64,000 nt of DNA, taken from IMG/VR virus record IMGVR_UViG_3300040960_001746, one strand, 5' to 3'. This stretch comes from a virus. Both the position numbers and the translations under genes were made by a program. Shown piece by piece: positions 11,464 to 53,959 of the stretch (the stretch's first letter is position 1; each line of letters starts with the position of its first letter). The notes below the pieces were generated by a model, which was given only the letters and a program-made list of their open reading frames with translations, was not told the DNA's origin and ran no database searches.

Positions 11464-12210
11464 TTATTCTTCTTTTTCTGAACCAAAGGACGCTCTTATT
11501 TCTTTTTCATCAAAATTATCAACATCACTTTGTGTTAATGTGAATTCTTCTTCCTCCTCTGTTTCATCATAACCTTCTTTATCTTTCCAATAATCAGTTA
11601 ATTTAACACTGTAAGGGAATGAATCCATCGATCTCATTTCTAACCTCTCCACAGGTGTAGGATTTCGTCTTTCGATTTCTTTTTCTAAGTCATCGATTTT
11701 ATTGATAACGTTATCCATTCCTGAAACTTGTGACTCTAATTCAGATAATTTAGCTAATAAATCATCCATCTTAGTACTAACACCATCAACAGAATTTTTT
11801 GTTTCTTCAGTTTTATCAACAATATCTGTTACATCTACTTCTACTGTATCTTCACTACCTAATGGTTCTTCAGTTGCAAATTCATCTTCTAACTCAGTAT
11901 CACCGAAAGGATCGGTTTCACCCTCAGTATCTGCACCTAACTCTGTTTCACCTTCAACGTCACCAAATGGGTCTTCTAAAGTTTCTTCTTCAGTGTCTGT
12001 AGTAGTATCCTCTACTTCTTCTGGTGTCTCTTCAGTATCTGCAAAAGGATCTTCTTCTTCCGCAGGTGGATCTTGTTCTGTTAACATATCGTCCAAAAGT
12101 AAATCACCATTAACATCTTTAGGGTCATCTTCTTCTGGTACATAGAAAGTATATTCCAATAACTGTCTATATCTTTTTAAATCTTCGGATAATAAATTTT
12201 TCTTACTCAT
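11464..12210 (-). CDS. Highly acidic coiled-coil protein, possible prohead core/scaffold or internal head protein
   Basis: N-terminal LLSEDLKRYRQLLE leader, long D/E-rich linker, heptad coiled coil. Confidence 0.6.
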   Translation of the reverse strand: MSKKNLLSEDLKRYRQLLEYTFYVPEEDDPKDVNGDLLLDDMLTEQDPPAEEEDPFADTEETPEEVEDTTTDTEEETLEDPFGDVEGETELGADTEGETDPFGDTELEDEFATEEPLGSEDTVEVDVTDIVDKTEETKNSVDGVSTKMDDLLAKLSELESQVSGMDNVINKIDDLEKEIERRNPTPVERLEMRSMDSFPYSVKLTDYWKDKEGYDETEEEEEFTLTQSDVDNFDEKEIRASFGSEKEE

Positions 12211-12211
12211 A

Positions 12212-12397
12212 TTACATTAATAGTTGTCTACCATCATTAGTCTTATAAACTTTGTTTACTCTCTCAACGATTTCTTTTCCATCATTAATCATACACTCTT
12301 CACCTTCACACTCCTTTTGTGTATTAGTGTCGTTAAGAAAATTATCTAATTTATTTCCCAAAGTTTCTTTTTCTTTAGTATCTTTTTTAGTTTCCAT
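12212..12397 (-). CDS. Hypothetical small protein
   Basis: 61-aa ORF preceded by the late motif at 12411-12419. Confidence 0.65.
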   Translation of the reverse strand: METKKDTKEKETLGNKLDNFLNDTNTQKECEGEECMINDGKEIVERVNKVYKTNDGRQLLM

Positions 12398-12426
12398 AAT
12401 ACTTTTTATTTATAAATATTAAGAAA

Positions 12427-13423: not shown

Positions 13424-13427
13424 ATTA

Positions 13428-19026: not shown

Positions 19027-19039
19027 AAAAAACTATTTT

Positions 19040-25080: not shown

Positions 25081-26238
25081 TTATTTAGGATAACTCATTA
25101 TTTTACCACTCCACTTTCCTTTAGGACTAATAATTTCATCTGTGGATTCATCATATACCGCAAAATATTGATCGGTTTGTGGTTTACCTATTTGTGTAGT
25201 TTCAAATCCCATAATAAAAAACCTACTACCTTTTTTTAATAAAACGGTATTATTTCTTTCATTAAATGTTTTTTGAATTTTGAACTTTTTAAGGTCGTTT
25301 GAACTAAAGAAAGGTGAAGCGGGTGGAGATGCTTTAACAGTACTACCATCCATTCCGATAGTAGTATCAGTAGAAAATTTAATTTCTATATAATCTTGTG
25401 AAGTTATTTTTTCACCAACACTTTTATTCCCACCAACCTTTTTAGTTTCATCATCTAACTTTTTATTATAACCTTTAACATCATATGCTTGTTTTAAAGT
25501 GTTAATCATATCATCCAATAAACTCTCACTTTTTTTATACCAGTCATCTAAAAAAATACAACTTTTTTCAGTTTCTTGTCTATCGTCTTTTTTTCTTAAA
25601 TTTTTACGATATTTTTTATCACAATAATTCCAAGTATTTAATAAATTTTCTTGTATAAATTCTGGTTGATCAACTATAGAAGAAATAAAAACAGTTTTAT
25701 CCATATCACCGTTTTCATCTAACCCATCATCAGTAAATGATAAACAATAACATACACTATGTTCCGCTTTTTTACCATACCTACTAATAAATCGTTTAGC
25801 GTCTATTGCTTTACCTGCAACTCTTTTTATTCTACCCAATGTACGAGGACCATATTTTAAAACTCTACCACCAACTCTAATAGTTGTTCTCCTACCTAAA
25901 ACTAATTGTTCTAATTCTTCCATAGAAACTTCATCTGAAGATAAAATAGACAATAAACCATCCTCATCAGTCGCATCCATATCTAATACTTCAATTTCAA
26001 TTTCATCCCCAACTTTAACTGAAGAGTCATATTCTTTTGCAACACTCAACTCAATATAATATTCATTTTCAGTAGTATTATTAACCTCCCCATCTGCAAT
26101 AACAATAAATTTTTGTTTTTTTGTAGGTACATCACCTTCTATGGGTGAAATTGCAATACCACCTTGTTCTAACAGATAGTCTATTGTTTTATTAATACTT
26201 TCTACTATCTTAAGAAATTTATCATTTTTTTCTAACAT
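25081..26238 (-). CDS. Hypothetical protein with NusA-N-terminal-like segment
   Basis: IVIADGEV...IELSVAKEYDSSVKVGDEIEIEV; (I/L)xE leader; late motif at 26252. Confidence 0.65.
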   Translation of the reverse strand: MLEKNDKFLKIVESINKTIDYLLEQGGIAISPIEGDVPTKKQKFIVIADGEVNNTTENEYYIELSVAKEYDSSVKVGDEIEIEVLDMDATDEDGLLSILSSDEVSMEELEQLVLGRRTTIRVGGRVLKYGPRTLGRIKRVAGKAIDAKRFISRYGKKAEHSVCYCLSFTDDGLDENGDMDKTVFISSIVDQPEFIQENLLNTWNYCDKKYRKNLRKKDDRQETEKSCIFLDDWYKKSESLLDDMINTLKQAYDVKGYNKKLDDETKKVGGNKSVGEKITSQDYIEIKFSTDTTIGMDGSTVKASPPASPFFSSNDLKKFKIQKTFNERNNTVLLKKGSRFFIMGFETTQIGKPQTDQYFAVYDESTDEIISPKGKWSGKIMSYPK

Positions 26239-27243: not shown

Positions 27244-29586
27244 TTAAAAATTACATAGATTTTTTTGTTTATCGTACCAATAGTTAAAAGCGTCATCCCA
27301 ATCAGTAGTAAAATTATCTATTTGTGGAAACACCGATTTGAATTGTTCATTAAATAAATCCCAGATCTGATAACTAGTCATGGTTTTTCTTTCAGGATTA
27401 GGCCTGAACATATATTGTATACCATCTTCACCTGTTGTACATTCTAATTGTACAACTTCTTCTTTCCACAAATATTCCATTAAAGATTTAACAACAGAAC
27501 TGTCTTTACCATTTTCTTGACACCAACTTTCGTAATCACTGCGTTCAAAGGCAACTTCCCCCTCATCCTCAAATTCCATTTTACAATATTCTAATATTAC
27601 TTTAGTGTAAGTATTTTGCATAATATTTATACATTCTTCTACACTATTTGCAGAACCATATAATGCTGGATTAACTTCTTGCCAATTGATATAAACTTTA
27701 CCTTTTTCATCGTTATTTAATGTTAAATATCCAGCGTCATTAAATTTTCTTAATTCCTGTAATTTTACAGGTATATCGTTATTTTGATTTAAAGTTTCAC
27801 AATTTCTTGTATTAAATGCATTAGTAACATATCCAAAAATATTATTTACCCTATCTGCAACACATTTAACATTTTGTTGTGTACAAGTTAATTTTATGAG
27901 ACCCTTAATAGACCTTGGTTTACCATCTTTAAAAAGAATGCCAGGTAATTTACCCTCTTCTTTAATAGAATTTTTAACTAAATCTTCACCGCCTTCACCT
28001 AATTCATCTATTATAAATTCTACAATTTCTACTTTTTCTATTAATTCGGTAAATTTACCTTTTAATTTTTCTTCAATTTGTTCTACTTTAGTTTCATCAT
28101 TACACTCCATACAACATTCTTTTTGTTTTTCACCACAATCATCTTTATGACAACATTCCCAATTAGGACAAATTTTTTCAAGTTCCTCACAAATCTTAAT
28201 AAGCATATCATCACCTAAACCTTTAACATTATCCTGCATAGTATCAGTTAAACTTTCAATGTAATTGATTATGGCTTTAAGTGGTCCTGCCAAACATCTA
28301 CCCATCTTAGTAAAATAAGTTTCTTCCTCAACTGCGGCATCCTCACCAAACTCCTCTTTTCTTTTTTCTATTTGTTCAGGAGTAATCCAACTTTCTTTAA
28401 ATAAAGGGCATATTACTGTATACAATAATGCACCACCTCCACCTATCGAATAAATCCAAAATTTAATTTTTCTAATTCTATTATTTGCAGTAGCCAGTTC
28501 TTTTATTTGTTTGATTGCCTCATCTAATGATTCACCATCACTAAAATCTAAACCTTTTCTTTTAAGATAATTTTTATAGGCATCTAAATCTTTTTGATTT
28601 TTAAATTGTATTAAAAATATTTCTTCACTATTAGGGTTTCTATAAATAATAGTTTTTCCCCAATCTAAATTTTTATTTTTTATTTTTTCTAAAGATATAT
28701 CAACATTTTCTATATTTCTATTCACCAATTTATTTAATTTATTTTTAAAAGAACTTTCAACTATTTTATATGAAGGATTATCTCTAAACGCTTTTTGTAT
28801 TTCTATATCTAAATTTTTGGTATCTAAACCTAAATCTTCTTTAATTCTTAACCAAGAATCATTTAAATCTTTAGCTAATTCAAAATCTAAATTTTCTAAT
28901 CCGTCTAATTCTTTAAAGGAATTTTTTAATTCATCAATTGACTCAACCCCATCTTTACCTATCAATGAAATAAAGGCATTTTTAGTGGTTTTTGATTGTC
29001 CTCCTACTAATCCCCAAGTATCAACTATTTTATTTAATTTTTCTAAATGTAAATTTATTAAATTAAGTTCCTTAATACCATTTCTCGCAATTTGTAATTG
29101 AGCTAAATTTTCCGGAGATAAAACATCTAAAAGTTCTGTAGGGTAACTTTGTCTTAACCCATTTAAATAATTTTCTATAGTGCCAATTTTAATATCAAAA
29201 CCCTTTTCTAAAGAAATCTTTCTGATTAAATCTGAAAAACTACTAACAAATTGTTTAGTTGATACTCTGAGTGAGCTAGCCGATGGTAATTCTGTTAATG
29301 CAGTTCTTAAATTAGAAGCACTTTGTATTTTTGTGAAGGCATTATCAAAATTATTTATAGTGTTATTAATGTTATCACTTTGTTTTTCTAATACTTTTAT
29401 TTCATTACTATATTTTGCTAAATCAGTACTACCAGCACTTCTTTTTGCTGCCTTTATTATCTCATCACCTATACCTTCATTAATTATATTTTTTATTTTA
29501 TTGTGAGTCTCATTAAAAGTTAATCTTTTATCCATTCTTTCCATTAAGAATTTAATTTCATTGATATTAAGATTTTTTCTTTTCAT
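27244..29586 (-). CDS. Hypothetical single-pass membrane protein with Cys-rich C-terminal half; candidate internal virion protein
   Basis: Leader ending IINEG; TM IKFWIYSIGGGGALLYTVICPLF; CPNWECCHKDDCGEKQKECCMEC. Confidence 0.7.
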   Translation of the reverse strand: MKRKNLNINEIKFLMERMDKRLTFNETHNKIKNIINEGIGDEIIKAAKRSAGSTDLAKYSNEIKVLEKQSDNINNTINNFDNAFTKIQSASNLRTALTELPSASSLRVSTKQFVSSFSDLIRKISLEKGFDIKIGTIENYLNGLRQSYPTELLDVLSPENLAQLQIARNGIKELNLINLHLEKLNKIVDTWGLVGGQSKTTKNAFISLIGKDGVESIDELKNSFKELDGLENLDFELAKDLNDSWLRIKEDLGLDTKNLDIEIQKAFRDNPSYKIVESSFKNKLNKLVNRNIENVDISLEKIKNKNLDWGKTIIYRNPNSEEIFLIQFKNQKDLDAYKNYLKRKGLDFSDGESLDEAIKQIKELATANNRIRKIKFWIYSIGGGGALLYTVICPLFKESWITPEQIEKRKEEFGEDAAVEEETYFTKMGRCLAGPLKAIINYIESLTDTMQDNVKGLGDDMLIKICEELEKICPNWECCHKDDCGEKQKECCMECNDETKVEQIEEKLKGKFTELIEKVEIVEFIIDELGEGGEDLVKNSIKEEGKLPGILFKDGKPRSIKGLIKLTCTQQNVKCVADRVNNIFGYVTNAFNTRNCETLNQNNDIPVKLQELRKFNDAGYLTLNNDEKGKVYINWQEVNPALYGSANSVEECINIMQNTYTKVILEYCKMEFEDEGEVAFERSDYESWCQENGKDSSVVKSLMEYLWKEEVVQLECTTGEDGIQYMFRPNPERKTMTSYQIWDLFNEQFKSVFPQIDNFTTDWDDAFNYWYDKQKNLCNF

Positions 29587-29599: not shown

Positions 29600-32500
29600 T
29601 TATACTGTAATTTTTGCAATTAAATCATCTAAACTAATTCCGCTAGTAAAACTAACACCTAATTTTTTTTCTAATACATCTTTTATTTTAGCACAATTAC
29701 CACTTGAATCCTTCAATACCTCACCGTTTCCAGAATTTACACCTTCTGAAGACAATCCAGTATTAGAAGTTAAATCTACTTCACCGATAATAGGTATATC
29801 TACAAAAGTTTTTATACCTTTTTTATTTTCGTCCATTAGTTTAACAATAAATATATTAGTTAATTTAACATCACCATTACTATCAATAGTCCAATCACCC
29901 TCTAACTTAACATATGTTAATCCTACACCTATTTCATTTGGAGTTTTAGTAGTATCGATACCCTTTTTTGAAACAATTAAATTTACATTTTTACCACCTA
30001 TAGAAATAGTTTTTGTACATGCAATTGTATCTGTTACTTTAAAATACATATTGAATACTTTCCCATCTACACCATCAAACAAATTAACTAAAAAATAGTT
30101 ATTATCCCAACTACCTTTATCTTTTGCGTATAAACCTAAAACACAATCACCACTTTTAGTATTTGGGGATTGGAATTTTAGTTTAGTGTTCGATAGGTAT
30201 TTATTATAAATTACACCTAAATTAGTACCCGCACCTAAACATAAATCTTTACTATCTGGTTTCCTGATAATATATCCTTTATCCTGTAAAAAATTTTTCG
30301 CGTCATCTTCATTATCACAAACTTCATTTATTAAATTACCATATAATCTTTCATTTGTAAATAAAGATTTAATTCTTTCTATTTCTTCATTTAATTTCAT
30401 GTTTTTATTTATTTTTTCTTCTTTTATGTCGTTAGGATTTTCTTTTAAACCATTAATGAAATCGTTAATTTCTTCTTGATCCTCATCTGTTAAATTAATA
30501 TCTCCTGTAACTAGTACCGCAGTTTTTTCTTTTTTAGATATTTTTGGTTTATCTTTACTGTCTAATTTTTTTATTGTTTCATCTATTAGTTTAACTATCT
30601 CTTCTGTTTTTGATGTTTTTACCATACTAGTAATCTCATCTAAAGAGGGTACCATAATATTTACTATAGGTTCGATATCTACTTTTTTATATCTTTTACC
30701 ATTAATAATATCTAAAAATTTTTGATATAAATCACCTAATTTATCTTTTACTTCACCATCTGTTTCTTTTCTTAATTTTATTAAAGGTTCTAAAACAGAT
30801 AAAAATAATCGGTTTTCTTCTTCATAATCACTTTCATTAACACCTAAAGAACCTATATACGAATCTACTTTTTCTTTATTAGATATTATGTCATTAAAAT
30901 TTAAAAGTCTATCTTCATCGAAATTACCACTACTACCTTTTTCACCAAAAACACCTAAAGGATCTAAACCATATTTTTCATATAAATTGTGTAATACCTT
31001 ACCTAATTCGTCACTATATACATACATACCTAAGAAAATTGTACCTTGTATTACTGCCCCTCTAACACCTTTACTATATTTATTAGTCATTTTTAATAAA
31101 TCACCACCAGACTCATCAAACAACCTTTTCATATCATCAGGTTTTAATTCTTTAAACATTTTTTCTAAAATACCTTTATTTGGATTTGGTAAATCATTAA
31201 TTTTTTTATCGATTTGATTTAAAAATTCTTTTCCACCACTGTTTTTAAGATTATTGTTGAATTTAGTAAATTCTTTATAAAGTTTTTTCTCTGCGGGAGT
31301 TAATCGATTAGTCCAATTTGCGATATCTCTTTCTAATTTAAATGCATTTTTAATTTTACCTGTATCATCAACATGTTTAGATATAATAGTGCCCAAATCA
31401 TTTAATTTATTACTAAATTTAACACCACTTTTTGCGAGTGTTAAACCTTCTCCAATCCCAAACATACCTAATGCGGTTAAACCTGCGTTAAGTTTCCAAC
31501 CTTCATCAGCTTCTATCACATAACCAATCGCACTAATAGCATCTACAATACCACTAACAACTGCACCTACAGGTCCGAATGCGTAAGCCGCAATAGAAAC
31601 GATATCTAATATGCAATGCCAGTCAGTTACACAATCTTTAACCGCATCACCGATTCTTTCAGGATCATACCACTTTCTAGTGTCACTTACTTCCGCCCAT
31701 TCATATAATTTCTTATTATGAATTACGTCCTCATTGTTTCTCGCACACATACAATATCCTTGATTACCTACCCAACCAATAGATTTAGTGTTACCCTTTT
31801 CTAATTTTCTCTCTGTGGGATATGTAAATACACCCCCCCTATTTTGACAAACGTTCTTCCAAGAAAAAGTTTTATTATATTTTACAGGTGTGTCCACAAG
31901 TACTGCCGCACCACCAGAATAATCTCTTCTTTTTTCATATCTAACACCAGTACCATACACAACATCATCACACAATTGTTCTTCTTTTTGTGAACTTTGT
32001 CCCACAATAATTAAATTATGAATATTTATAATTTCTAAAATATAAAATATTTGATTTATTTGTCTAACATCCATTAATGTGATATCATTAACCTCAAAAC
32101 CTAAAGACTTAAGTTCTTTTTTTGCGGATTCTTCTTGAGTTTTAATTTTTTGATATTCCCTCCATCTAAATATAATGTTAGGATATTTAGAGTTAAGTTC
32201 ATTTCTCTTCCTGTAGCAAGCATCAACCTCACTCTGTGAATTATAGTTTTGGTAGGTGGTTGGTTTATTATCGTTAGAATCATAATTTTTGTATGGATTA
32301 TCAACATATGTAGTACTAGCGACATATGTAGTACTAGCGACATTTACATTGTCATATTTATTTTTTATTGGTATAGGACATTCCCTTTTTAACTGCTTAT
32401 ATTTTTCTATATATTCAAAGTATTCTTTTTCTAAATCCTCATCTGATTCAAAATTAGTATAATACTTAGATATATCACGTTTTATCCAACCGCCAGTAAT

Positions 32501-35853: not shown

Positions 35854-36732
35854 TTAAATTATATGTTTTTTAATTTCATCAATCACCCACTCAATATTAT
35901 TGTTGATGTCGTCTTCCCAAAACCTTAGTAAAATATAATTATTTTTTAAACACCATTCGGTTTTAATTTTATCTTTAATTAAATTATTTTTCTGATGTTC
36001 AATTACAGGTATTTTATGTTCTGTTTTTGGGTTACAGTGCCAAAAATCACCGTCAATTTCGATTAATATATTTTTTCCTTTGATTTTAAAATCGTATAAC
36101 GATTTAATTTCTCTAACGTAAAATTGTTGATAATAATCGATATTAAGATTATCCAGTAATTTACTGAAATTATTTTCTAAATTAGATATTACTGTAAATC
36201 CATTTTCTTTTATATATAAAAGTCTTTTATGACTTTGTTTTTCTTTATTCTCTTCCTTACCCCAGTATTCTCTCATACCTTCATCAAGTTTATCTAAAAC
36301 ATACTGTGGACGTTTTCTACCCTTAAGTGCCTTTGAAATTTTTTTATTCCTTTCTAAATTAGAACTTATCTTATCCCCATAATCTAACCTTTCGTCATCT
36401 TCTTTGGTTAACCCTTTATTCCATATTACAAGTTCACCTGACCCATATAACTTTCTTTGTGTATCTTTAGATTTTTTCTGTGCGTCAACATTATGCCCCC
36501 AATTATTGTTAACTCTAGACGCATGACCTCTAATATAATCTCTAAACCCTTTTTGAATTCCTAAGAATGTTGGTACCTCACCACAACCACATTTACATTC
36601 AGGTGTTTTACCTTCTAAATTATGTTTAATAAAAGTTTCTTGCGGTTTAATTTTATGTTTTTTAACATTATGAGAAGATAAACTCCATAATGTATCATAT
36701 TCCTTATCACATATTTCACATTTAAATTGCAT
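35854..36732 (-). CDS. Putative homing endonuclease: C2H2 finger + CxCGCG + NUMOD3-like + Vsr/DUF559 nuclease
   Basis: CEICD...H...H, CKCGCG, WNKGLTK, KKISKALKGR, YDF...LIEIDGDFWH, LLRFWE. Confidence 0.8.
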   Translation of the reverse strand: MQFKCEICDKEYDTLWSLSSHNVKKHKIKPQETFIKHNLEGKTPECKCGCGEVPTFLGIQKGFRDYIRGHASRVNNNWGHNVDAQKKSKDTQRKLYGSGELVIWNKGLTKEDDERLDYGDKISSNLERNKKISKALKGRKRPQYVLDKLDEGMREYWGKEENKEKQSHKRLLYIKENGFTVISNLENNFSKLLDNLNIDYYQQFYVREIKSLYDFKIKGKNILIEIDGDFWHCNPKTEHKIPVIEHQKNNLIKDKIKTEWCLKNNYILLRFWEDDINNNIEWVIDEIKKHII

Positions 36733-37370: not shown

Positions 37371-38978
37371 ATGGATTATAAAAAATTTTTTTTAACAGAT
37401 AATAAATCGGGAAATAAAACAAGAGAAGATTTTATTAAAAAAAATTATAAGGATATTTTCGATAATATTAATTTATTTGTGGAAAAAAACAAATTAAATG
37501 AAGATTTACCTTTCAAAGAAAAGGTATTTTTATTTATTCATAATATTGTAGAACAACCCAAATGTGGTAATTGTGGTAAAGAATTAAAATTTAAAAAAAG
37601 TTTAAAAGAGGGGTATGGTAGTTATTGTTCTATAAAATGTAACAATCAATCAAAAGAACAGAGAGAAAAGATAAAGAATACGTTCACAAAAAAATATGGT
37701 GGACACCCTATGAATTCTAAAAAAGTAAAAGATAAGGTTAAGAAAACAAATTTAGAAAGATATGGTGTTGATAATATGTTCAAAGACTCCAAATACATCA
37801 TAGAAAAAACTAAAGATAAATTGGGTGTTACTAATCCAAACAAGTTAGAACGTATAAAAGAAAAAAAGAGAAAAACTAATATTAGAAAATATGGGGTATC
37901 CACTAATTTAATATTAGAAAATAATAGAGAAAACAATATCTTATCAAAGTTAAAAAAATTTAATAAAAAGTATAAGTCATTAAAAATAATAAATGATAGG
38001 GGTAGTTATGTTACATTAGAATGTGATAAGTGTGAAAATAGTTATGATATCGATAGAAGTTTATTATTCTATCGTTTTGACAATAATTTAAATTGTTGTA
38101 CCATATGTAACCCTGTAAATGAATTAAGATCAATAAAGGAAAAAGAATTGTCTGATTTTATAAATGATTTAGGTTTTGATGTAACAACAAGTGATAGAGA
38201 TATATTAAATGGAAAAGAAATTGATATATTAGTTAAAGAGAAGAATATAGGTTTTGAGTTAAATGGTTTATATTATCATTGTGACTTATTCAAAGACAAA
38301 AATTATCATATTGATAAAACAAACGAGTGTAATAAAGAAGGTATACGTTTAATACATATATTTGAGGATGAATGGGACAATAAAAAAGATATTGTGAAAA
38401 GTAGAATTAAAAATCTATTGGGGTTGACAGATAATAGAATATATGGTAGAAAATGTATAATTAAAAAAGTACCTACTAAAATAAAAACTAAATTCTTAAA
38501 TGAAAATCATATACAAGGAACTGTTGGTAGTAAAATAAATTATGGTTTGTACTATGATGATGAACTTGTCTCTATAATGACATTTGGTAAAGGTCGTAAT
38601 GTTATGAATGGTTCTAACTACGAATGGGAGTTATTACGTTTTTGTAATAAAATAAACCATTCTGTTATTGGGGGTGCGTCTAAATTATTAAAACATTTTA
38701 TTAAAGAGAATAACCCAACTAATATTATTAGTTACGCTGATATAAGATGGAGTGATGGTAATCTATATAATAAATTGGGATTTGATTATAAAAACTCATC
38801 TAAACCAAACTATTACTATGTAGTTAACAAAAAAAGAGAACATAGATATAAGTTTAGAAAAGATATATTGGTTTCAGAAGGATTTGATTCAAATAAAACT
38901 GAAAAAGAAATTATGATAGAAAGAGGTTATAATAGAATATATGATTGTGGTAATTTGGTATATTCTATTTCTTTATAA
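37371..38978 (+). CDS. Hef-like free-standing homing endonuclease, copy 2 (paralogue of 34205-35785)
   Basis: Same architecture: FFLTDNKSG start, KKTNLERYGV repeats, EIDI...GFELNGLYYH, IHIFEDEW, GGASKL, RIYDCG. Confidence 0.8.
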   Translation: MDYKKFFLTDNKSGNKTREDFIKKNYKDIFDNINLFVEKNKLNEDLPFKEKVFLFIHNIVEQPKCGNCGKELKFKKSLKEGYGSYCSIKCNNQSKEQREKIKNTFTKKYGGHPMNSKKVKDKVKKTNLERYGVDNMFKDSKYIIEKTKDKLGVTNPNKLERIKEKKRKTNIRKYGVSTNLILENNRENNILSKLKKFNKKYKSLKIINDRGSYVTLECDKCENSYDIDRSLLFYRFDNNLNCCTICNPVNELRSIKEKELSDFINDLGFDVTTSDRDILNGKEIDILVKEKNIGFELNGLYYHCDLFKDKNYHIDKTNECNKEGIRLIHIFEDEWDNKKDIVKSRIKNLLGLTDNRIYGRKCIIKKVPTKIKTKFLNENHIQGTVGSKINYGLYYDDELVSIMTFGKGRNVMNGSNYEWELLRFCNKINHSVIGGASKLLKHFIKENNPTNIISYADIRWSDGNLYNKLGFDYKNSSKPNYYYVVNKKREHRYKFRKDILVSEGFDSNKTEKEIMIERGYNRIYDCGNLVYSISL

Positions 38979-39789
38979 TAATCCTTTTCTTTTTTGTATC
39001 TTTTGGATCTGAGGTATCATAAACAATAAAATTAATTTCGGGATATAAATTTTTTAATTCATCTCTAATTAAATCTTCTACCACTTCTACATTCCCTAAG
39101 TCATCGTCACTAAACCCAACACTAATACCTTCAAAATCTTCGTCATCTTTTATTTTAGATATTTGTTGTACCACTCTATCTACAAAACTCTTAAACGCAA
39201 TTTTCTTTCCTTCTTCGGGATTTGTTCCCACACTTTCTAACCCGAATTGTTTGGCGAACTCTGATGAGGATACTGGATGATAATCTTGTAGGTTTAAATA
39301 TTCGTCTATAGATAAACCATTAAGATTCTTTTCCATCTCTTTTCTTTCCACATGACTAAACGCATTATTTATGATTACTTTAATACCTTCTTTAATCGCC
39401 TGTGGTGGATTTGATCTGGCGGTGATTATAGAAAAGTCACTACCACTTATTAACGCCTCTTTAAATTTTTGGAAACTAGGTCCCATTTTATTTTGATATA
39501 ATGCTCTTTTTGTGTCTTCTATAAATGAGTCATAATCTCTGAAATCTTTAAATGATTGTGTAATATCATTATTAAGATATCTAAACTCATTACCTAACTT
39601 ATGTCTAACACTTCTAAATTGTTCTGTGGAAACTGAAACAGGTACATACGCATCCGTATTACCAATTCTATAATCTAAATGTATTCTTGTGGGCATAATT
39701 AATATGTTATCATCCCAATCAAACGAATACGCCTTTTTCTTAAATTCTTTTAATAATTTATATTGTGATTCTGTAAGTTTAATATTCAT
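38965..39789 (-). CDS. HAD-superfamily phosphatase-like protein with leader; start revised to 39789
   Basis: Motif I FDWDDNI, motif II ITAR, motif III K, motif IV GFSDDD..N; MNIKLTESQY start lies just after the late motif (39794-39801), while the longer ORF runs through a terminator. Confidence 0.75.
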   Translation of the reverse strand: MNIKLTESQYKLLKEFKKKAYSFDWDDNILIMPTRIHLDYRIGNTDAYVPVSVSTEQFRSVRHKLGNEFRYLNNDITQSFKDFRDYDSFIEDTKRALYQNKMGPSFQKFKEALISGSDFSIITARSNPPQAIKEGIKVIINNAFSHVERKEMEKNLNGLSIDEYLNLQDYHPVSSSEFAKQFGLESVGTNPEEGKKIAFKSFVDRVVQQISKIKDDEDFEGISVGFSDDDLGNVEVVEDLIRDELKNLYPEINFIVYDTSDPKDTKKKRIIIKK

Positions 39790-43036: not shown

Positions 43037-43259
43037 TCCCTAAAATATTCTTTAGTTGTTGGATTTGTTCTAGTGTTAATTTTGTGAAATCTAAATTATT
43101 CATATTGGTATCTGAGTTTATATTTGGATCTTCAAAAACAATTTCCCTAGATATTCTATTTTCAATAGTTGCTTCTTCTTCAGTTTGACAATCATGTACA
43201 TCTACATGCCAACTATCTTGACCATTTCCTTGTAATTTATATGTATATTTTGTTATCAT
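43029..43259 (-). CDS. Small protein coupled to tail fibre (possible fibre chaperone)
   Basis: TAATG stop/start overlap with the fibre gene; C-terminal LTLEQIQQLKNILG helix. Confidence 0.6.
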   Translation of the reverse strand: MITKYTYKLQGNGQDSWHVDVHDCQTEEEATIENRISREIVFEDPNINSDTNMNNLDFTKLTLEQIQQLKNILGIN

Positions 43260-45496
43260 TATAGTTCTAATTTAATTCCTACTCTAAATTGTACTGCAGT
43301 TGGGTTAGTGGTAAAAGTAGGGGTCTCTATGATTACGAAAGTTCTACCAGCATTAATATCTATTGATAAACCTGTGATTATAAATTCTTGATGTCTGCTA
43401 GTTGCAGTTACAGTCGATGACAATGTGTTACTTGTTGCTCCACCATCGGATAAAAAATTAACTGTTATATTTTCACCACTAGCAAATGTACTAGCATTAT
43501 AAACTCCAATATAAGCTTCTGTTATTGTTCCTGATGGGAGGGGTATATGAGCAACTGCATTCACACTAGTTTGTAGAGTTGTCATTTGTCCAAGATAGTA
43601 CCTAGCATTATCTGCTAATGAAGTATTTTGAACATTAAAATATGAGATTGAGATACTGTCACTGCTAGTGGTATTACCACTAACAACATAACCGTTAGAA
43701 TCTATCCCCAAAGTATTAATAGAGGTTCCTGTCCCTAAAGTTCCTATATTTACTGTACCAGTAACACCTAAATTACCATTAATTATTGTATTACCACTAA
43801 CGTCTAATTTTTCTGTCGGTGTTGTTGTACCAATACCAACATCACCATTTGGTTGAATTCTTACAACTTCTGTTGGTAGAGAATTAGATGCCCAAAAACT
43901 AAGACCAATTCTTGTATTATTAGGTCCATTATAGGGTCTAATCTCAGCATAACTAGATGTTGATCCTGCATCTAATCGTATACCATTTTCTCTAACACTA
44001 TTGATGGTAGATAAATCAGGATTAGAATTTTCAATTCTTAAAATACCTTCATCAATATGTACTTTTTGTGTGGGTGATGATGTATTCACACCAAGTCTAT
44101 TATTTATTAAATCAATGGTTACCCCACTTGTTGAACCGAAATAAACATTACCTTCGTCATTTGAGTTAATATTAAGTGGTGAACATGACTGAATATTAGA
44201 TACGTATAAATTTGTAACACAATTACCTGTATTACCTATATCACCTATAACATCTAAATTACCATTAATTGTTAAACCACTAACTTGATTAATAGTAGTA
44301 CTAAGTGAACCACCATTATCATCAGTTATAGTTAAAGTATTATTGTTATTGTATGTGAATCCTGTTGTGGTAATACCTACATCAGTTCTAATAACTTCTT
44401 GAGGTTTATCATCACCATTACCAACCCATAAATAATCTGAGGTTAAGTTTGGTAAACCAGCGGTACGTGCAGTGTTAAATATAAATAATTGACCATCAGT
44501 TGAACCAACCTTTAATACCTTAGCAATTCTTTGTATTTGTGTATTTGTTCCCGAAGGTCTGAATTTAGTTAACCCACCATCAGTTGTATTCATATATAAT
44601 ACATCATTAACCGCCCACGTCTCACCATTAGGGTTAATTGTCGATACCGTACTTGTTGTATCCACACCAACTAACTTACCAAAAGTGATTAAAGGATAAA
44701 TACCAGCGTTATCAAAATCCTCACCTGTAAATCCAATTACTGGCATTGTTGATGCGGTTGTTGCGTTTGCTAACTCAACCTCATGTATATCATCATCAAA
44801 ACCTGTAATATAAACTGGACAACCTTTATCTATTGTACCAGCAGTACCTTTTTTAGCCCATATTGTTACATTACCTGTTGATACGTATTCTTCACCAGTA
44901 ACCCACTGATTATTCGTAACATCAAAGTAAAGTAACCTACCTTGGTATGTATTGTCAGGTGTTGTAGGGATATTTGATGTTACGTCATCTAAATCAGTTA
45001 AAGTTAATCCTGTATATGTTGTGGCGGAAAGAGTGTCTACCACTAATGTACCATTAATAGTTAATCCAGTTACTGTATTTATTGTTGATGTTAAATCCCC
45101 TAATCCACCATTTCTTGATATTGTGAATGTGTTAGCGTCATTATATGTGAATCCTGTAACATAAAAGTTATCACCAGTAGAATCAATTTTAATAATATCA
45201 CCTATGGTTGTTACAGTAGTATTTGTACCACCGCTAATAGTTCTGAAATATAAATCAGTACCAGACTTACCACTGAATACTTCATTAGCACCCCCATTAT
45301 TGACACCATCCTTAACCCTATCCCAACCAATTTCTCTGATTTCTGTTGCGCCTGTTAATCCACCTGTGTAAGTGGAAAAAAGTTTTGCGTCCGCAGTATT
45401 TAAAGCTAATTCCCCTAATTGTATATCACCCAAAGAGGGTACTTTATTAACAACATTGGATCTCTTTAAAAGAAATGTGTTTTTTCTATTTGCCAT
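43259..45496 (-). CDS. Tail fibre / receptor-binding protein
   Basis: LKRS...P....LGELALNTAD.KLF N-terminal fibre motif, VTGFTY repeats, GNVGIGTTTP-type motif, distinct C-terminal tip. Confidence 0.8.
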   Translation of the reverse strand: MANRKNTFLLKRSNVVNKVPSLGDIQLGELALNTADAKLFSTYTGGLTGATEIREIGWDRVKDGVNNGGANEVFSGKSGTDLYFRTISGGTNTTVTTIGDIIKIDSTGDNFYVTGFTYNDANTFTISRNGGLGDLTSTINTVTGLTINGTLVVDTLSATTYTGLTLTDLDDVTSNIPTTPDNTYQGRLLYFDVTNNQWVTGEEYVSTGNVTIWAKKGTAGTIDKGCPVYITGFDDDIHEVELANATTASTMPVIGFTGEDFDNAGIYPLITFGKLVGVDTTSTVSTINPNGETWAVNDVLYMNTTDGGLTKFRPSGTNTQIQRIAKVLKVGSTDGQLFIFNTARTAGLPNLTSDYLWVGNGDDKPQEVIRTDVGITTTGFTYNNNNTLTITDDNGGSLSTTINQVSGLTINGNLDVIGDIGNTGNCVTNLYVSNIQSCSPLNINSNDEGNVYFGSTSGVTIDLINNRLGVNTSSPTQKVHIDEGILRIENSNPDLSTINSVRENGIRLDAGSTSSYAEIRPYNGPNNTRIGLSFWASNSLPTEVVRIQPNGDVGIGTTTPTEKLDVSGNTIINGNLGVTGTVNIGTLGTGTSINTLGIDSNGYVVSGNTTSSDSISISYFNVQNTSLADNARYYLGQMTTLQTSVNAVAHIPLPSGTITEAYIGVYNASTFASGENITVNFLSDGGATSNTLSSTVTATSRHQEFIITGLSIDINAGRTFVIIETPTFTTNPTAVQFRVGIKLEL

Positions 45497-45625: not shown

Positions 45626-47563
45626 TTAATAAGTACCTCCATCTAAAATATCAAATTCGGCTAATACCCTAACACCATTAGGTGCTCCATTATTTAAATT
45701 GTTATTTCTTATTACAATATCATTTAACTGAGTAACCCAACCACGATTATTATAACCTACAAACCCACTATATTCACTTACATTTGGTATTTCACCGGGG
45801 ACAATACCTGTAAGACTTTGCATCTGACCAATAGTGAAATAAGTATCACCCGTAGTCGTACCATCACCATCTTGAATTTTAATACCAGAACCAACAGAGG
45901 TTGTGGACGTATCTCCTGTTGGGTTATAATTTAATTCTATTTGTGGATCTTCTACATAAAGTTCACTAGTAGAAATAGTAGTAGTATCACCGAAAACTGT
46001 TAAATCACCATGTACTGTTAAATCACCCACACCCGATGTTGAGGTAGAACCACCTGAACCAATCACTAAACCACCTTGACCAATATTGGCAGTTGTACCT
46101 GAAGAGTTAGTTACGTTTAAATCACCAACCGTAAGTAAGTTTGTAGTATCGTTATACTCAAATCCAGACTCATCAGTTAATTCTCCACCTGTTCCAACAT
46201 AAACAACTCTTCCTGCGGTTAGGTTAGAAATTGTTAACCCTGATACAGTGTCAATAGATGTGGTTAAATTTGGTTCACCTTCATTCCTTGAGATAGTGAA
46301 TGTGTTATTGGTTGAGTTATAAGTAAATCCTGTTACGAAAGTATCATTAACATCGATAGTACTTAAATCTACAGTAAAGTTAGAACCATCGTTTTGATCA
46401 AATGTAATTAAAGAAGTTCCGTTGTTATATGTACCTCCTGTTGTAAAAGTATCTGTATATGGTAAAGAATACGTACTAGGTGCAACATCTTGATTATATA
46501 ATAAATCTATTGACGCACTATTAGTATTATCAGTTGCGGAATTATTAGTACCACCTGTTACAAAAGTATCATTAACATCAATATTAGATAAGTCTACGCT
46601 AAATGTCGAACCGTCATTTTTATCAAAGTCTATAGATGTTGTACCTAAGTTATAAGTTCCCCCAGTTGTAAATGTATTTTGTGTTGTTATAAAATAAGGT
46701 CCACCAGCAACAGGAATGTTATAGTCTAATTGAGCACTTTGTGTATTTGTGTTATTATTAGCTGCAGTTAATGTATTACCCGTAACAAATGTGTCTGTAA
46801 CACCAGTAATATCAACAGTAACATCGTCATTTCTAGTTAATGTTATTGTATCAGTTACATCACTATATGTACCACCAGTTACAAATGTGTTTGTTGAAGG
46901 TGGGATAGAAACATCCACTCTAATAATATCACCAATGGTACTAATAGATGTGTTAGAACCACCACTTAGTGTTCTAAAATATAAATCAGTACCTGACTTA
47001 CCACTAAATATTTCTTCGGCACCACCAGAATTGACACCATTTTCAATTTTACTATCTAATTCTGTTTGTAAATTAACAACACCTGAAATTGGTATATTAG
47101 TTAAACCTGTACCATCACCATAATAAGTTATACCCGATAACACACTAATAGTTGATGTTAAATTAGGTTGTCCTTGATTTCTAGATATAGTAAATGTATT
47201 TACATCATCATAAGTAAATCCTGTTACAAATGTATCAACACCTGTGATATCTGAAATGTTTGCTAATTCAAACCCATTTGTCGTACCTGATAAGAATTTA
47301 CCTGATAAATTTGTTAAGTCATTATAATGTGTAATTTTATTTCTTACCCTTAAATCATAAAGATTCGAACCTACTTCGAAAAAATTAGATGTTGTACCTG
47401 TCCCTGCAGGTGTCCATTCTGATGTTGTTGTTGTTACACCTGAAAAGAATACTATACCATCTGCGGTATTTACTATCGGTTCACCTTTTAACAAAGAAGA
47501 CGGTAAGGGTCTACTTACAATATCCGAATTTTTTAAAATGTGTGTCGTGTTTCTTGTTGCCAT
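45626..47563 (-). CDS. Tail fibre-like protein with DTFVTGGTY/DTFVTGFTY repeats
   Basis: About eight TFxTGxT repeats, T/G/N-rich, shares modules with neighbouring fibres. Confidence 0.8.
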   Translation of the reverse strand: MATRNTTHILKNSDIVSRPLPSSLLKGEPIVNTADGIVFFSGVTTTTSEWTPAGTGTTSNFFEVGSNLYDLRVRNKITHYNDLTNLSGKFLSGTTNGFELANISDITGVDTFVTGFTYDDVNTFTISRNQGQPNLTSTISVLSGITYYGDGTGLTNIPISGVVNLQTELDSKIENGVNSGGAEEIFSGKSGTDLYFRTLSGGSNTSISTIGDIIRVDVSIPPSTNTFVTGGTYSDVTDTITLTRNDDVTVDITGVTDTFVTGNTLTAANNNTNTQSAQLDYNIPVAGGPYFITTQNTFTTGGTYNLGTTSIDFDKNDGSTFSVDLSNIDVNDTFVTGGTNNSATDNTNSASIDLLYNQDVAPSTYSLPYTDTFTTGGTYNNGTSLITFDQNDGSNFTVDLSTIDVNDTFVTGFTYNSTNNTFTISRNEGEPNLTTSIDTVSGLTISNLTAGRVVYVGTGGELTDESGFEYNDTTNLLTVGDLNVTNSSGTTANIGQGGLVIGSGGSTSTSGVGDLTVHGDLTVFGDTTTISTSELYVEDPQIELNYNPTGDTSTTSVGSGIKIQDGDGTTTGDTYFTIGQMQSLTGIVPGEIPNVSEYSGFVGYNNRGWVTQLNDIVIRNNNLNNGAPNGVRVLAEFDILDGGTY

Positions 47564-49277: not shown

Positions 49278-49279
49278 AA

Positions 49280-49857: not shown

Positions 49858-52710
49858 ATGTTGGATGTTAAGGATATTAAAAATCTTGACAGTGAAGATT
49901 TACTCATGACATATGAGGGTAAAAACCCTTATATAAAGTACATGCGCAAAAAAAAGGAAACTGAAAAAAATTATTTTCTTACTAATAATCAGTCAAATTA
50001 TGTAAAAAATTATTTTACCTTCGAACCAAAGGTATTAAATAAAGTTATAGAACTGACTAATTATTTTTCTGAAGAATTAAAAGAAGAACATAAATTAAAA
50101 ATAACACCTAAAAAAATATTTGTGGAAACTTTATTGGCGGAATCGGACAAAGCGATACACGTTATATGTAAGTTATATAAAAACCAAAAGGACGTTAAAT
50201 TATTATGGATACCTAAAACACAAATATTAGATGATATTCATTATGAAGATATCGATGTAGATATAGACTTTGACAAATACTCTAAATTAGATAAAAGAGG
50301 ATGGAGGGCGTTTAAACATCAAGAAGATGGTATTAAGTTCTTAATGAAGAACAAAAAGTGTATTTTGGCGGACGATATGGGTTTAGGTAAGAGGATTGCT
50401 AATGATGTCCCTGTATTAACACCTAACGGTTGGGTGTTGCATGGTTCTTTAAAAGTGGGTGATTATGTTATAGGGTCAAATGGTAAGCCAACCAAAGTAT
50501 TAGCAACATATCCAAACCAATCAGATGATTATTATAATATAACCTTTACTGATGGTACTGTAGTTGAGTCTTGTGGTGAACATTTGTGGGCAGTACAAAC
50601 TACTAACCATAGAAAAAGAGGTAGTGGATTTAAAGTTAAACCACTTAAAGAGTTAAAAAATGATTTAACTTATGGTAAATATGGTAACACTAAATGGTTT
50701 ATCCCAATGGTTAATACTGTAGAATTTAATAAAAAAGATGTTGGTGTTGATCCTTATCTATTAGGTTGTTTATTGGGAGATGGTGGTATTAGTCAAAGAC
50801 ACATAACATTATCAACCGTAGACGTAGAATTATTAAATGAGTGTAGTGAAAGGTTACCTGTAGATTATTTTTTCGATAAAGTGAAGGGTAAGAATGATTA
50901 TTTATTAAAACAACAAATAACAGAACGAACTGTTGGTACTAAACATAGTGTTATTGAACATTTAAAGAATTATAATTTAATGGGTACTAGATCAGATGAT
51001 AAATTTATACCTGAAGATTACAAATATAACACTAAAGAGATTAGATTAGAAATTTTACAAGGTTTATTAGATACTGACGGATATTGTTCAAAAAAAGACG
51101 GTACAATACAATTTTATTCTGTATCAAAGCAACTTTCAGATGACGTAAAAGAATTGGTTCAGTCGTTTGGTGGAGTGGCTAGAGAAAGTACTAAAATAGG
51201 TAAATATAAAAAACCTAATGGTGAAGTGGTTCACTGTAAAATCTGTTATATATTAACTATTAATCTACCTAAAGGTATTATCCCTTTTAAATTACAACGT
51301 AAGATTAATAATATGAAATCTGATAGAAAGTATCTACCATATAGGGGTATAAAATCTATAGAGTATTCTAGAACAACTGCAGGACAATGTATATCAGTAC
51401 AAGCAGAAGATAATCTTTATGTGATAGATAAATATGTTGTTACACATAATACCTACCAGTCTATAGTTGCTGCGTTAGAAAGTGGTGCGGAAAGAGTTTT
51501 AATAATATGTCCTTCATCACTCAAAATAAATTGGATGAGAGAAGTACAAAATTTTTGTGATGACGTATCAATAATTACAGGGTCTTATTGGGATCCTGCG
51601 AGATTCACAATCATTAACTATGACATACTCAAAAATTTTCACACAGTTAAAGAAAAAAATAAAGAATACGAAGAGTGGGAATTGAGAAGAGAAATTGCAG
51701 ACTTCAATCCCGATCTATTAATATTAGATGAAGCACATTATGTTAAAAATCACAAATCTAAAAGAGGTGCAATATTAAAAGATTTATCTAAGAATTTTTC
51801 ATGTGAAAGAGTATGGTTATTAACTGGTACACCTATCGCAAATAGACCTATGGATTACTATAATTTATTATCTATTATTGATTCACCAATAACAAACAAT
51901 TGGGTTCACTACGCTAAAACTTATTGTGAAGGTAAAAGATTTAGAAAGGGTGGTAAATATGTATGGGTTACTACAGGGGCATCTAATTTAGATGAGTTAG
52001 CATCTAAAACAAAAAGAACAATATTAAGAAGAAAAAAAGAAGATGTCTTAGATTTACCCGAAAAATTGATTACCCCAGTATATTTAGAATTAGAAAATGT
52101 AGATGGTTATAAATCTGTATGGGAAGATTACTTAGCGAAAAGAAAGTTAGAAGGTAAAAAAGGTAATCCTGCGAGAGACTTAGTAGAGATGACATTACTT
52201 AGAACTTTTATTGCGATGGAAACTGTACCCTATTCTATTGAAAAGGCGGAAGAGGCGTTAGAGTTAAATAAAAAAGTTATTATATTTTGTAACTTTAATG
52301 ATGAGATGGACGCATTTAACAGACACTTCGGTAATAAGGCGGTATGCGTAAGAGGTGGTATGTCAGATAAACAAAAACAATTATCAGTAGATAGATTTCA
52401 AGAAGATGATAGTTGTAAGGTATTTGTAGGACAAATTAAGGCAGCAGGTGTGGGATTAACACTAACTAAGGCGGAGATTGTTATTATGAACTCTTTAGAT
52501 TGGGTTCCCGGAAATCACGAACAAGCGGAAGATCGTGCATATAGAATAGGACAAAAGGAAACTGTTAATATTTATTATATGTTAATGGATGATACTATTG
52601 ATACTTTAGTATGGGATATACTAAATGAAAAGAAAAAGATTATTGGAACCATTATGGGTGAAGATGATATAATAAATGAATTTATAAATAAAATAGAAGA
52701 TGAAAGTTAA
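49858..52710 (+). CDS. SNF2-family (SMARCAL1/HARP-like) helicase containing an intein
   Basis: LADDMGLGK[intein]T, IICPSSLK.NW, INYD, LDEAH, LTGTP, GLTLT.A, QAEDRAYRIGQ. Confidence 0.92.
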   Translation: MLDVKDIKNLDSEDLLMTYEGKNPYIKYMRKKKETEKNYFLTNNQSNYVKNYFTFEPKVLNKVIELTNYFSEELKEEHKLKITPKKIFVETLLAESDKAIHVICKLYKNQKDVKLLWIPKTQILDDIHYEDIDVDIDFDKYSKLDKRGWRAFKHQEDGIKFLMKNKKCILADDMGLGKRIANDVPVLTPNGWVLHGSLKVGDYVIGSNGKPTKVLATYPNQSDDYYNITFTDGTVVESCGEHLWAVQTTNHRKRGSGFKVKPLKELKNDLTYGKYGNTKWFIPMVNTVEFNKKDVGVDPYLLGCLLGDGGISQRHITLSTVDVELLNECSERLPVDYFFDKVKGKNDYLLKQQITERTVGTKHSVIEHLKNYNLMGTRSDDKFIPEDYKYNTKEIRLEILQGLLDTDGYCSKKDGTIQFYSVSKQLSDDVKELVQSFGGVARESTKIGKYKKPNGEVVHCKICYILTINLPKGIIPFKLQRKINNMKSDRKYLPYRGIKSIEYSRTTAGQCISVQAEDNLYVIDKYVVTHNTYQSIVAALESGAERVLIICPSSLKINWMREVQNFCDDVSIITGSYWDPARFTIINYDILKNFHTVKEKNKEYEEWELRREIADFNPDLLILDEAHYVKNHKSKRGAILKDLSKNFSCERVWLLTGTPIANRPMDYYNLLSIIDSPITNNWVHYAKTYCEGKRFRKGGKYVWVTTGASNLDELASKTKRTILRRKKEDVLDLPEKLITPVYLELENVDGYKSVWEDYLAKRKLEGKKGNPARDLVEMTLLRTFIAMETVPYSIEKAEEALELNKKVIIFCNFNDEMDAFNRHFGNKAVCVRGGMSDKQKQLSVDRFQEDDSCKVFVGQIKAAGVGLTLTKAEIVIMNSLDWVPGNHEQAEDRAYRIGQKETVNIYYMLMDDTIDTLVWDILNEKKKIIGTIMGEDDIINEFINKIEDES
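50392..51450 (+). mobile_element. Class 3 intein (353 aa) with LAGLIDADG homing endonuclease, inserted in the Walker A GK/T
   Basis: RIANDVPVLTPNGW...CGEHLW...YLLGCLLGDG...LQGLLDTDG...GQCISV...VVTHN/T; removal restores GLGKT. Confidence 0.92.
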
Positions 52711-52957
52711 AGTATTTTCAATGAAAGGATGTCCACATTGTGACAACTTAAAAAACCAATTAAAAGAAAGTAATATAGATTTTATTGAATTGGATGTCGA
52801 TGAACATGAAGAATTGTATGAAAAATTCTCTAAGAAAGTTAATAATGAATATCTACCTGCGATTTTAATAGAAAAGACTGCGTTTTTACCTGATAGATCA
52901 TTTCAGACAATAAATGAGGCGGTAGAGTTAGTTAAGCGTCACCTTCAGGTGCTTTAG
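52700..52957 (+). CDS. Glutaredoxin / NrdH-like redoxin
   Basis: VKVFS..GCPHC..LK, ELDVD, LPAI. Confidence 0.85.
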   Translation: MKVKVFSMKGCPHCDNLKNQLKESNIDFIELDVDEHEELYEKFSKKVNNEYLPAILIEKTAFLPDRSFQTINEAVELVKRHLQVL

Positions 52958-53282
52958 GTCCGGGACCATTTAAGTTAAAGTTATAGTTATCTTGTGATTT
53001 ATTGTCTAACATATCACCTAAAACGTTGATAACGTTATCATATCTATCACTATGTTCTGCAGCAAACCCTTCTTGTCTACCATTGTCACTTAAAAGAGAT
53101 AACCTAATACTATCTAATACTTCTCTCATTTCTTCGTCTTCACAATATTGTAAGGCAGATTCTATATCTCTAAGTCCATCAACTAAATGTTGCATCGCTT
53201 TATAAGACAATCCCAATGCAATGTCATTCTGCGTTTTATTATCGGTTTCCTCCTTTAATATTTTTTTAATAATTCTTTTCAT
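52932..53282 (-). CDS. Hypothetical protein with IIKKILKEE leader
   Basis: 116 aa; start overlaps the stop of the upstream gene. Confidence 0.65.
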   Translation of the reverse strand: MKRIIKKILKEETDNKTQNDIALGLSYKAMQHLVDGLRDIESALQYCEDEEMREVLDSIRLSLLSDNGRQEGFAAEHSDRYDNVINVLGDMLDNKSQDNYNFNLNGPGPKAPEGDA

Positions 53283-53959
53283 TATATTTTTCTTCTACCT
53301 TTATGATAAATATCATATTGTTTTCTAAATTCTCTTGGTTGACTATACCAATTATCTTTAGTATCTTCAAAATCTCTTTCTCTTTTATAGTTACCTTTAC
53401 TATCTACAGTAACCAAATCTAACTCTTCATTACTATTAAAATTATATTTATCATTTAATAATCCTATCTTACTAACATATTCTTTTGTTAATTGTTGTAT
53501 TTTTTGTTTATATTCTTTAGTAATCTGTTCTGACTCTTCGCTAAATCCTTTAATGTCATTAATTGCGTCTTTGACGTTAACATAATCGTATCTTTCCCCT
53601 TTACCTACAATTTTACCCTCTTTGTTATAATAACTTTGATCTCTATCACCCACAATATTATCTAAAATAGATTTTTGATAATCTTTATGTGGGTCATCTC
53701 CAAAACTTCCATGTCCCCTCTTATCCACATCCTCAACTTTCATATTGGCATATAAGTTCCAATGTTCAGGATTAAAATAAAATATAATTTTTTTACCAAT
53801 TTCTGGTATATATGACTCCCAACTATATTTTCTATGTGCTACATATAATTCTGTAGATGGTGAAATACTAATTTCTGGTGAGGTTAATTCATCATCGTAC
53901 TCATCAGTCCTATCTTCCGTTTCCTCAAATAATATTTTTCTAATAACATTTTTCATCAT
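53282..53959 (-). CDS. Hypothetical protein with VIRKILFEE leader
   Basis: 225 aa; late motif immediately upstream. Confidence 0.7.
   Translation of the reverse strand: MMKNVIRKILFEETEDRTDEYDDELTSPEISISPSTELYVAHRKYSWESYIPEIGKKIIFYFNPEHWNLYANMKVEDVDKRGHGSFGDDPHKDYQKSILDNIVGDRDQSYYNKEGKIVGKGERYDYVNVKDAINDIKGFSEESEQITKEYKQKIQQLTKEYVSKIGLLNDKYNFNSNEELDLVTVDSKGNYKRERDFEDTKDNWYSQPREFRKQYDIYHKGRRKI

Follow-up and report, generated by a model that had tools for sequence, protein, structure and literature searches.

Which proteins of an uncultured T4-like giant phage share an N-terminal leader, and what that leader might do, are the questions raised by a 64,000-nucleotide (nt) stretch of IMG/VR record IMGVR_UViG_3300040960_001746 (here called the window, at its full length). 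An earlier note on this stretch had described one common leader on about eight otherwise unrelated proteins and read it as a T4-like tag for capsid targeting and cleavage. The eight N-termini that it quoted are all present at the starts it gave, and we retain its proteins as proteins 1 to 8. Judged by sequence comparison, six of them (proteins 1, 4, 5, 6, 7, and 8) carry a shared N-terminal leader, whereas one is not supported for proteins 2 and 3, and the leaders fall into three families rather than one. We lean toward the explanation that these leaders are T4-type capsid-targeting propeptides used on a much larger scale, a reading to which we give slightly better than an even chance.

The window, at 29% G+C, comes from a distant T4-like myovirus. 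Its structural genes encode baseplate wedge and hub proteins, the tail tube, the sheath, and a gp13/14-like protein; its genes for replication and metabolism encode DnaB, UvsX, Ssb, an exonuclease, ribonucleotide reductase, and DNA polymerase. No megablast match to the window was found among GenBank phages, an exact 41-mer from it had no match in IMG/VR, and a metagenome scan gave contigs of 1.1 and 3.1 kb only; many relatives are present in IMG/VR. Four of these were analyzed at full length: G001 (128.6 kb; its sheath is 92% identical to that of the window), G002 (253.9 kb; 79% identical, and collinear with the window over 154.8 to 215 kb), G003 (125.7 kb), and G006 (322.5 kb, rated complete), which is more distant from the window but syntenic.

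Clustering of N-termini yields three main families of related leaders. Family A (MKIIITE-SQ type) opens with Met-Lys, three hydrophobic residues, and Thr/Ser-Glu and continues with Ser-Gln-aromatic-Lys-Lys-Leu/Ile; family B (L-x-E-E-L-x-R-I-K type) reads Leu-x-Glu-Glu-Leu-x-Arg-Ile-Lys-x-Leu-Met; and family D (K-K-I-L-K-E-E type) reads Ile-Lys-Lys-Ile-Leu-Lys-Glu-Glu. A single family can be ruled out, there being three or more. We found no description of families A, B, and D in the literature, and a tblastn search with one 30-amino-acid (aa) leader returned no match among cultured phages, so that no cultured phage with a virion proteome can be linked to them.

The extent of sharing was measured by an alignment-free test in which residues 2 to 21 of each protein of at least 80 aa were compared with all nonparalogous proteins (cutoff, ≥45). 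At this threshold, 35 of the 262 proteins of G002 have an N-terminus resembling that of a nonparalog, and residues 51 to 70 and shuffled sequences give none; in the complete G006, 34 of 315 N-termini match nonhomologous proteins, against none in the controls. Leader carriers amount to some 13 to 15% of proteins in the relatives, or about one in seven (~40 genes per genome). Profiles that were built without the initial Met, seeded from G002 alone, and run on six-frame translations place their matches above shuffle level almost exclusively right behind a start Met: 23 N-terminal versus 2 internal matches for family A and 12 versus 2 for family B in the window and G002 together, and 16 of 17 family-A matches in G006. 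At least 120 IMG/VR stretches contain the exact family-A start. No leader is found on sheath, tube, baseplate, or replication proteins, which argues that the leader is not a general feature of late genes.

What is conserved is the peptide. Codon identity at identical residues lies close to the expectation from codon usage (observed versus expected: 0.62 and 0.56 for family A, 0.58 and 0.61 for family B, and 0.64 and 0.58 for family D), on which ground we reject recent gene conversion and any element that acts as DNA or RNA. Signals of the Sec or lipoprotein type are likewise rejected, since the leaders have no hydrophobic core and true signal peptides cluster apart from them in G006. The N-termini had also been called amphipathic; their helical hydrophobic moment exceeds that of shuffled sequences in only two of the eight proteins, and we discard an amphipathic helix as a defining property.

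In the window, where residues 2 to 21 were compared with nonhomologous N-termini in the four relatives, proteins 5, 7, 8, 4, 1, and 6 score 74, 56, 53, 52, 46, and 44, respectively, against a shuffle maximum of 40. Neither the profiles nor this test found further leader-bearing genes in the window beyond the proteins already noted. Behind their leaders the eight proteins are mutually unrelated (every BLASTP E value exceeds 0.28, and phmmer gives no match), as had been claimed, and searches of the eight against Pfam and PHROGs gave only subthreshold matches. All eight genes lie on the minus strand.

The best-scoring leader is that of protein 5 (gene 33356–34114), a family-B leader of residues 1 to 30 (34025–34114) that ends in L-V-E and reaches 23.8 bits (shuffles, 8.0). 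Its score of 74 is to a nonhomologous protein of G001, and in comparison with G002 only residues 1 to 32 are well conserved (66% identity, versus 24% downstream). Family D supplies the leaders of proteins 7 and 8: residues 1 to 11 of the former (53250–53282; gene 52932–53282) end in L-K-E and score 20.4 bits, and residues 1 to 12 of the latter (53924–53959; gene 53282–53959) end in L-F-E and score 13.2 bits, with seven matches of at least 40 in the alignment-free test (shuffles, 8.0 bits). Protein 4, a leader-bearing protein of 1,250 aa (29600–33352), opens with a family-A leader of residues 1 to 19 (33296–33352) with I-S-E at residues 7 to 9 and L-S-E at 17 to 19; it scores 13.9 bits, where the best of 10× shuffles reaches 9.7, and has 11 nonhomologous matches of at least 40. 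The family-A leader of protein 6 (residues 1 to 15, 39745–39789; gene 38965–39789) ends in L-K-E and is borderline at 9.5 bits, and its start at 39789 is supported because most orthologs open exactly there.

Protein 1 (11464–12210) is a marginal member. Its family-B-like N-terminus (12154–12210) passes the alignment-free test; a strong family-B profile score proved circular, since its own ortholog was in the seed, and the match is gone once that ortholog is removed. The G006 ortholog retains the L-E-E-L-x-R-Y start. The protein itself (248 aa, 34% Asp plus Glu, net charge of −63, with a coiled-coil-like C-terminal part) recalls in composition acidic prohead-core proteins such as T4 gp67, and its gene lies just downstream of ssb in the window, G001, G002, G003, and G006. 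Protein 3 (27244–29586) has a conserved N-terminus of its own, without a profile match and with a score of 39, which is null level; its G003 ortholog keeps the L-M-E and I-x-E-G sites. Protein 2 (25081–26238) also stands at null level (score, 37; no profile match) and resembles at its N-terminus only positional homologs beside the baseplate hub. The NusA-like cargo of the earlier note goes with it: the Pfam match falls below the cutoff (19.5 versus 23.8 bits) and lies on protein 2, which lacks the shared leader.

Leader-like sequence also occurs inside large proteins. Residues 985 to 1010 of protein 4 (30323–30400, minus strand) form a family-B-like segment that starts with Met-Lys and ends in I-N-E; it scores 13.3 to 14.6 bits, against 8 to 9 for shuffles, and is kept, including the Met, in the G003 ortholog. 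An internal copy with such a start suggests that two leader genes were fused or that translation can start internally. In G006, a highly charged 438-aa protein with an internal repeat (90358–91674, minus strand; locus L230) starts like a leader protein and has two further segments of this kind, one internal and family-A-like (12.1 bits), the other C-terminal and family-B-like (10.4 bits).

The leaders are rich in the sites after which a T4-type head protease would cut. Forty leaders contain 64 [LI]xE sites, compared with 27.3 ± 4.4 after each leader is shuffled, and 38 of the 40 have at least one, in keeping with the (I/L)xE sites noted earlier; the control triplets [LI]xK, [LI]xD, and Ex[LI] show no such excess, and the underlying preference is for hydrophobic-hydrophobic-x-Glu. 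The [SAG]xE motif of phiKZ-type phages is depleted (7 sites, versus 13.2 ± 3.2 in shuffles). In protein 6, the Glu15 that closes L-L-K-E is invariant in 25 orthologs of 43 to 97% identity, and the first L-T-E varies.

A gp21-like protease, which the earlier note's reading calls for, is encoded in the relatives. The head module of G002 follows the T4 order, with an S77 protease (252079–252768; 3.9e-23, above the Pfam Peptidase_S77 cutoff), an acidic scaffold (250674–251981) in which [LI]xE occurs 14 times, and a Gp23 capsid protein (1.8e-71), and the combination of gp21-type S77 protease, scaffold, and gp23-type capsid protein is found in relatives including G002, G005, and G006. An alignment to T4 gp21 sets I-L-V-E opposite the N-terminal L-L-I-E and has the His and Ser motifs kept. 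Just before the conserved mature core, the capsid proteins have L-L-N-E (G002) or L-I-N-E (G006), the predicted maturation site, and the same tetrapeptide form, L-L/I-N-E, closes many leaders. Correspondingly, [LIVM][LI]NE is 5 to 17 times denser in the first 35 residues of proteins than elsewhere in G002, G006, and G003; no such excess was seen in G001. An S77 protease is present in seven of eight long IMG/VR records that were tested and have the exact family-A start, including all four that are at least 96% complete.

Leaders and the sequences behind them part company between genomes, and sequence comparison shows the boundary of the leader to be the point at which cargo cassettes are swapped. 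DNA homology between the window and G001 covers gene 5 and the first 60 nt of gene 4, breaks off at position 33293, exactly where the 20-residue leader ends, and resumes only at the baseplate hub gene; in G001, the protein 4 leader heads an unrelated protein of 779 aa, so that here, as among T4-like internal proteins, a conserved leader precedes polymorphic cargo at the same locus. G006 lacks the entire block; its tube gene adjoins its hub gene. Among the leader proteins of G002, the cargo part has a G006 homolog in 6 of 40 cases, compared with 87 of 222 other proteins (p = 0.004).

Most leader cargo has no known family, and the ESM Atlas yielded nothing of use on protein 4 or protein 8. The phosphatase that had been proposed among the effectors holds up: by its modeled fold and its motifs, protein 6 (274 aa, 38965–39789) is a HAD-superfamily phosphatase. 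Its AlphaFold2 (AF2) model (predicted local distance difference test score [pLDDT], 83.4) matches the 3′ phosphatase domain of T4 Pnkp with Z = 10.4 and a root mean square deviation of 3.3 Å over 131 aligned residues, a match that covers model residues 16 to 262; many HAD enzymes follow at a Z of about 8. The D-x-D (D24 and D26) and D-D-D (D228 to D230) motifs are invariant, and residues 1 to 15, modeled as a helix of low confidence, lie outside the folded domain. Protein 6 has no Pfam match, and Foldseek E values against the PDB are weak. The HAD domain carries a family-A leader in most relatives, has a different short N-terminus ending in L-I-E in G006, and elsewhere forms the C-terminal domain of ~1,000-aa proteins behind an L-T-E site. 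Among the leader proteins of G002, one has an M23 peptidase domain and two have PG_binding_1, none with a secretion signal, a combination that fits delivery from the virion without proving it. Of the membrane-protein cargo proposed earlier, what remains is a single hydrophobic, transmembrane-like stretch in protein 4 (near residues 580 to 615; KD19, 1.94), a protein with no Pfam or PHROG match.

Upstream sequences bear on the host and on the timing of expression. Two motifs are overrepresented upstream of genes in the window and G002: ATATTTAT, with a 17.8-fold enrichment, and TAnnTTTG, which we take to be the Bacteroidota −7 box; no Shine-Dalgarno sequences were found at the genes of either. 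Together, these features point to a Bacteroidota host. G006 has, inside its head module and on the opposite strand, a gene for a 67-aa bS21-like protein (243319–243522, plus strand; locus L238), and a bS21 gene in this position is a hallmark of freshwater Bacteroidetes phages (PMC9723584). We treat ATATTTAT as a putative late-promoter motif. Most leader genes had been said to sit behind the late motif, but the motif does not discriminate them: it precedes 28% of leader genes versus 24% of other genes in G002 and 38% versus 18% in G006.

If the leaders are capsid-targeting propeptides, a leader-bearing protein, once made, would bind the scaffolding core during prohead assembly through its first 7 to 30 residues. 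After closure of the shell, the gp21-type (S77) protease would cut behind the Glu of a hydrophobic-hydrophobic-x-Glu site, the candidates being I-T-E around residue 7, L/I-x-E within residues 11 to 30, or both. The leader would then exit with the scaffold fragments, and the cargo would stay with the DNA and enter the host at infection. Core binding, cutting, packaging, and ejection are all inferred, from leaders that are strictly N-terminal, selected at the peptide level, attached to nonhomologous proteins, and furnished with a T4-type cut motif.

The role of the capsid-targeting sequence (CTS) in T4 and the diversity of the internal proteins of T-even phages have been described (PMC3012670, PMC5694885). 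The leaders resemble the CTS of T4 IPII and IPIII (MKTYQEFIAE, cut by gp21, and present twice in the T4 record) in being short peptides at the extreme N-terminus of unrelated, polymorphic proteins, in ending with hydrophobic-L/I-x-Glu, and in belonging to a lineage with a gp21-type protease, a gp22-like scaffold, and a gp23 capsid protein. They differ in that there are three or more families of up to ~30 residues, often with two candidate cut sites, and in scale: T4 has a handful of tagged proteins, whereas the leaders considered here mark about a seventh of the proteins and, as far as sequences can tell, recur inside large ones. Family A is closest in form to the propeptide of T4 Alt, which starts MELITE (T4 record) and is cut at ITE-6 (PMC5694885): both have Met, one to four residues, and a hydrophobic-I/L-T/S-Glu at residues 5 to 9. 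Alt is a large enzyme that is packaged in the head and injected, and its gene lies next to baseplate genes (PMC5694885, PMC5512222). Family A departs from it by continuing with S-Q-aromatic-K-K-L/I, often with a second L/I-x-E, and its cargo is not an ADP-ribosyltransferase. Phages phiKZ and SPN3US, whose protease is of the S80 type, contain dozens of head-internal proteins that are cut after Glu, with multiple cuts within propeptides (PMC5694885). The number of different proteins and a three-residue motif with Glu are common to both systems, but the phiKZ-type S/A/G-x-E is depleted in our leaders, and the protease matches S77. We know of no widely shared leader peptide described for phiKZ-like phages. 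The N-terminal packing signals on payloads of extracellular contractile injection systems (Photorhabdus virulence cassette [PVC]) and the cargo-loading peptides of encapsulins are also short, portable terminal peptides that bring unrelated cargo into a phage-derived particle; they differ from the leaders in sequence, in the compartment or shell that is loaded, and in having no protease step.

Several observations weigh against the capsid-targeting explanation. The leaders have no sequence similarity to the IPII/IPIII tag, the likeness being one of format only, and their association with the putative late motif is weak. The z-scores of the cut motif are inflated because members of a family are not independent, the enrichment of [LI]xxE nearly equals that of [LI]xE, and some family-A leaders of G006 have only the first I-T-E site. 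Among near-full-length ortholog pairs, conservation of the leader (0.62) does not significantly exceed that of the cargo (0.59; p = 0.16, 10 pairs), so we do not use such a difference as an argument. The window has no head module, the S77 protease being seen in relatives only, and three of its leader genes lie in the tail/baseplate block; this position is not strong evidence against a role in the head, because T4 alt also adjoins baseplate genes. The T4-like tag of the earlier note is supported in part: whatever can be tested on sequence agrees with it, but it has to be divided among three families and gives up two of its presumed carriers.

The position of these genes is the starting point for another explanation, which we consider unlikely: that the leader is a docking tag for a different virion compartment, such as the tail-tube lumen or the baseplate, in the manner of contractile-injection payload signals, and is not cut by the head protease. 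Genes 3 to 6 of the window do sit between the baseplate hub, tube, and sheath genes, and M23 and peptidoglycan-binding cargo would suit a tail-tip or periplasm-delivered role. However, most leader genes are far from tail genes, those of the tail block are missing from G006, and a head cargo gene in the same surroundings has its precedent in alt (PMC5512222). Some 40 proteins (10,708 aa summed in G002, several of them of more than 600 aa) would probably be too many for a lumen that must also hold the tape measure, and a compartment tag leaves both the enrichment of the cut motif and its match to the capsid site unexplained.

The enrichment of the cut motif, together with the swapping of cargo at the leader boundary, also tells against a regulatory element that sets protein levels, whether a degron, a chaperone handle, or a translation-start enhancer for a Bacteroidota host that does without Shine-Dalgarno sequences. 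We rate this quite unlikely, even though the leaders open with Met-Lys followed by hydrophobic residues, loosely resembling ClpX N-terminal motifs, the window genes have no Shine-Dalgarno sequences, and the head module of relatives includes a ribosomal bS21 gene (PMC9723584): conservation extends over 15 to 30 residues and is that of a peptide, codons agreeing about as often as expected; internal copies exist; and highly expressed late structural genes (sheath, tube, and capsid protein) have no leader. Finally, there might be no targeting at all if leader proteins were fast-diverging paralogs of a few ancestral genes in which only an N-terminal helix can still be recognized. The many cargo parts without a detectable family and the frequent tandem runs of leader genes would agree with this; we nevertheless regard it as very improbable, as the identifiable cargo differs in fold (HAD phosphatase, M23 peptidase, and PG_binding_1), the HAD domain is found behind a family-A leader, behind a different short N-terminus ending in L-I-E, and at the end of much longer proteins, and homology between the window and G001 breaks off precisely where the leader ends.

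The principle of the T4 tag is already known; what is new is its scale, its division into several families, its recurrence inside proteins, and the lineage in which it is found. Were the capsid-targeting explanation to hold, the T4 internal-protein principle would apply not just to a few proteins but to a seventh of the proteome, and the injected proteins of uncultured phages (~40 genes per genome) could be read from sequence. The genes so marked are mostly without function in annotation and fast evolving, and they would be the likeliest source of new anti-defense and host-takeover factors; the leaders would also offer a new set of portable tags with which foreign proteins could be packed into phage heads. 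A bolder extension, which we think doubtful, is that the families constitute a small sorting code, with different tags directing proteins to different places in the head or to different loading or ejection classes and internal tags marking polyproteins to be cut by the protease. The head would then be a programmable multieffector delivery device, similar in scope to a bacterial secretion system, in which dozens of unrelated and rapidly exchanged proteins, ~15% of the genes of a ~320-kb phage, are addressed.

Other features of the window concern shared domains and mobile elements. Two tail-fiber-like proteins (43259–45496 and 45626–47563, minus strand) have a common N-terminal domain and differing C-terminal parts; the common domain, also found in paralogs in G001 and G002, is a structural attachment domain and not a leader. 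Three free-standing homing-endonuclease genes lie around that of the tail tube (34205–35785 and 35854–36732, minus strand, and 37371–38978, plus strand); two are paralogs of PHROG 3339 and one is HNH-like, and they are present in G001 and without a match in G002 and G006. A SNF2-family helicase (49858–52710, plus strand; SNF2-rel_dom, 5e-27, and Helicase_C) contains an insertion of ~340 aa (about residues 192 to 531) that holds a LAGLIDADG_3 domain (3.8e-11) and is lacking from the 597-aa G002 ortholog; the insertion is probably an intein. Tandem DUF2827 paralogs (59100–60263 and 60266–61453, plus strand; 2.8e-75 and 5.3e-95) have no BLASTP counterpart in G002 or G006.

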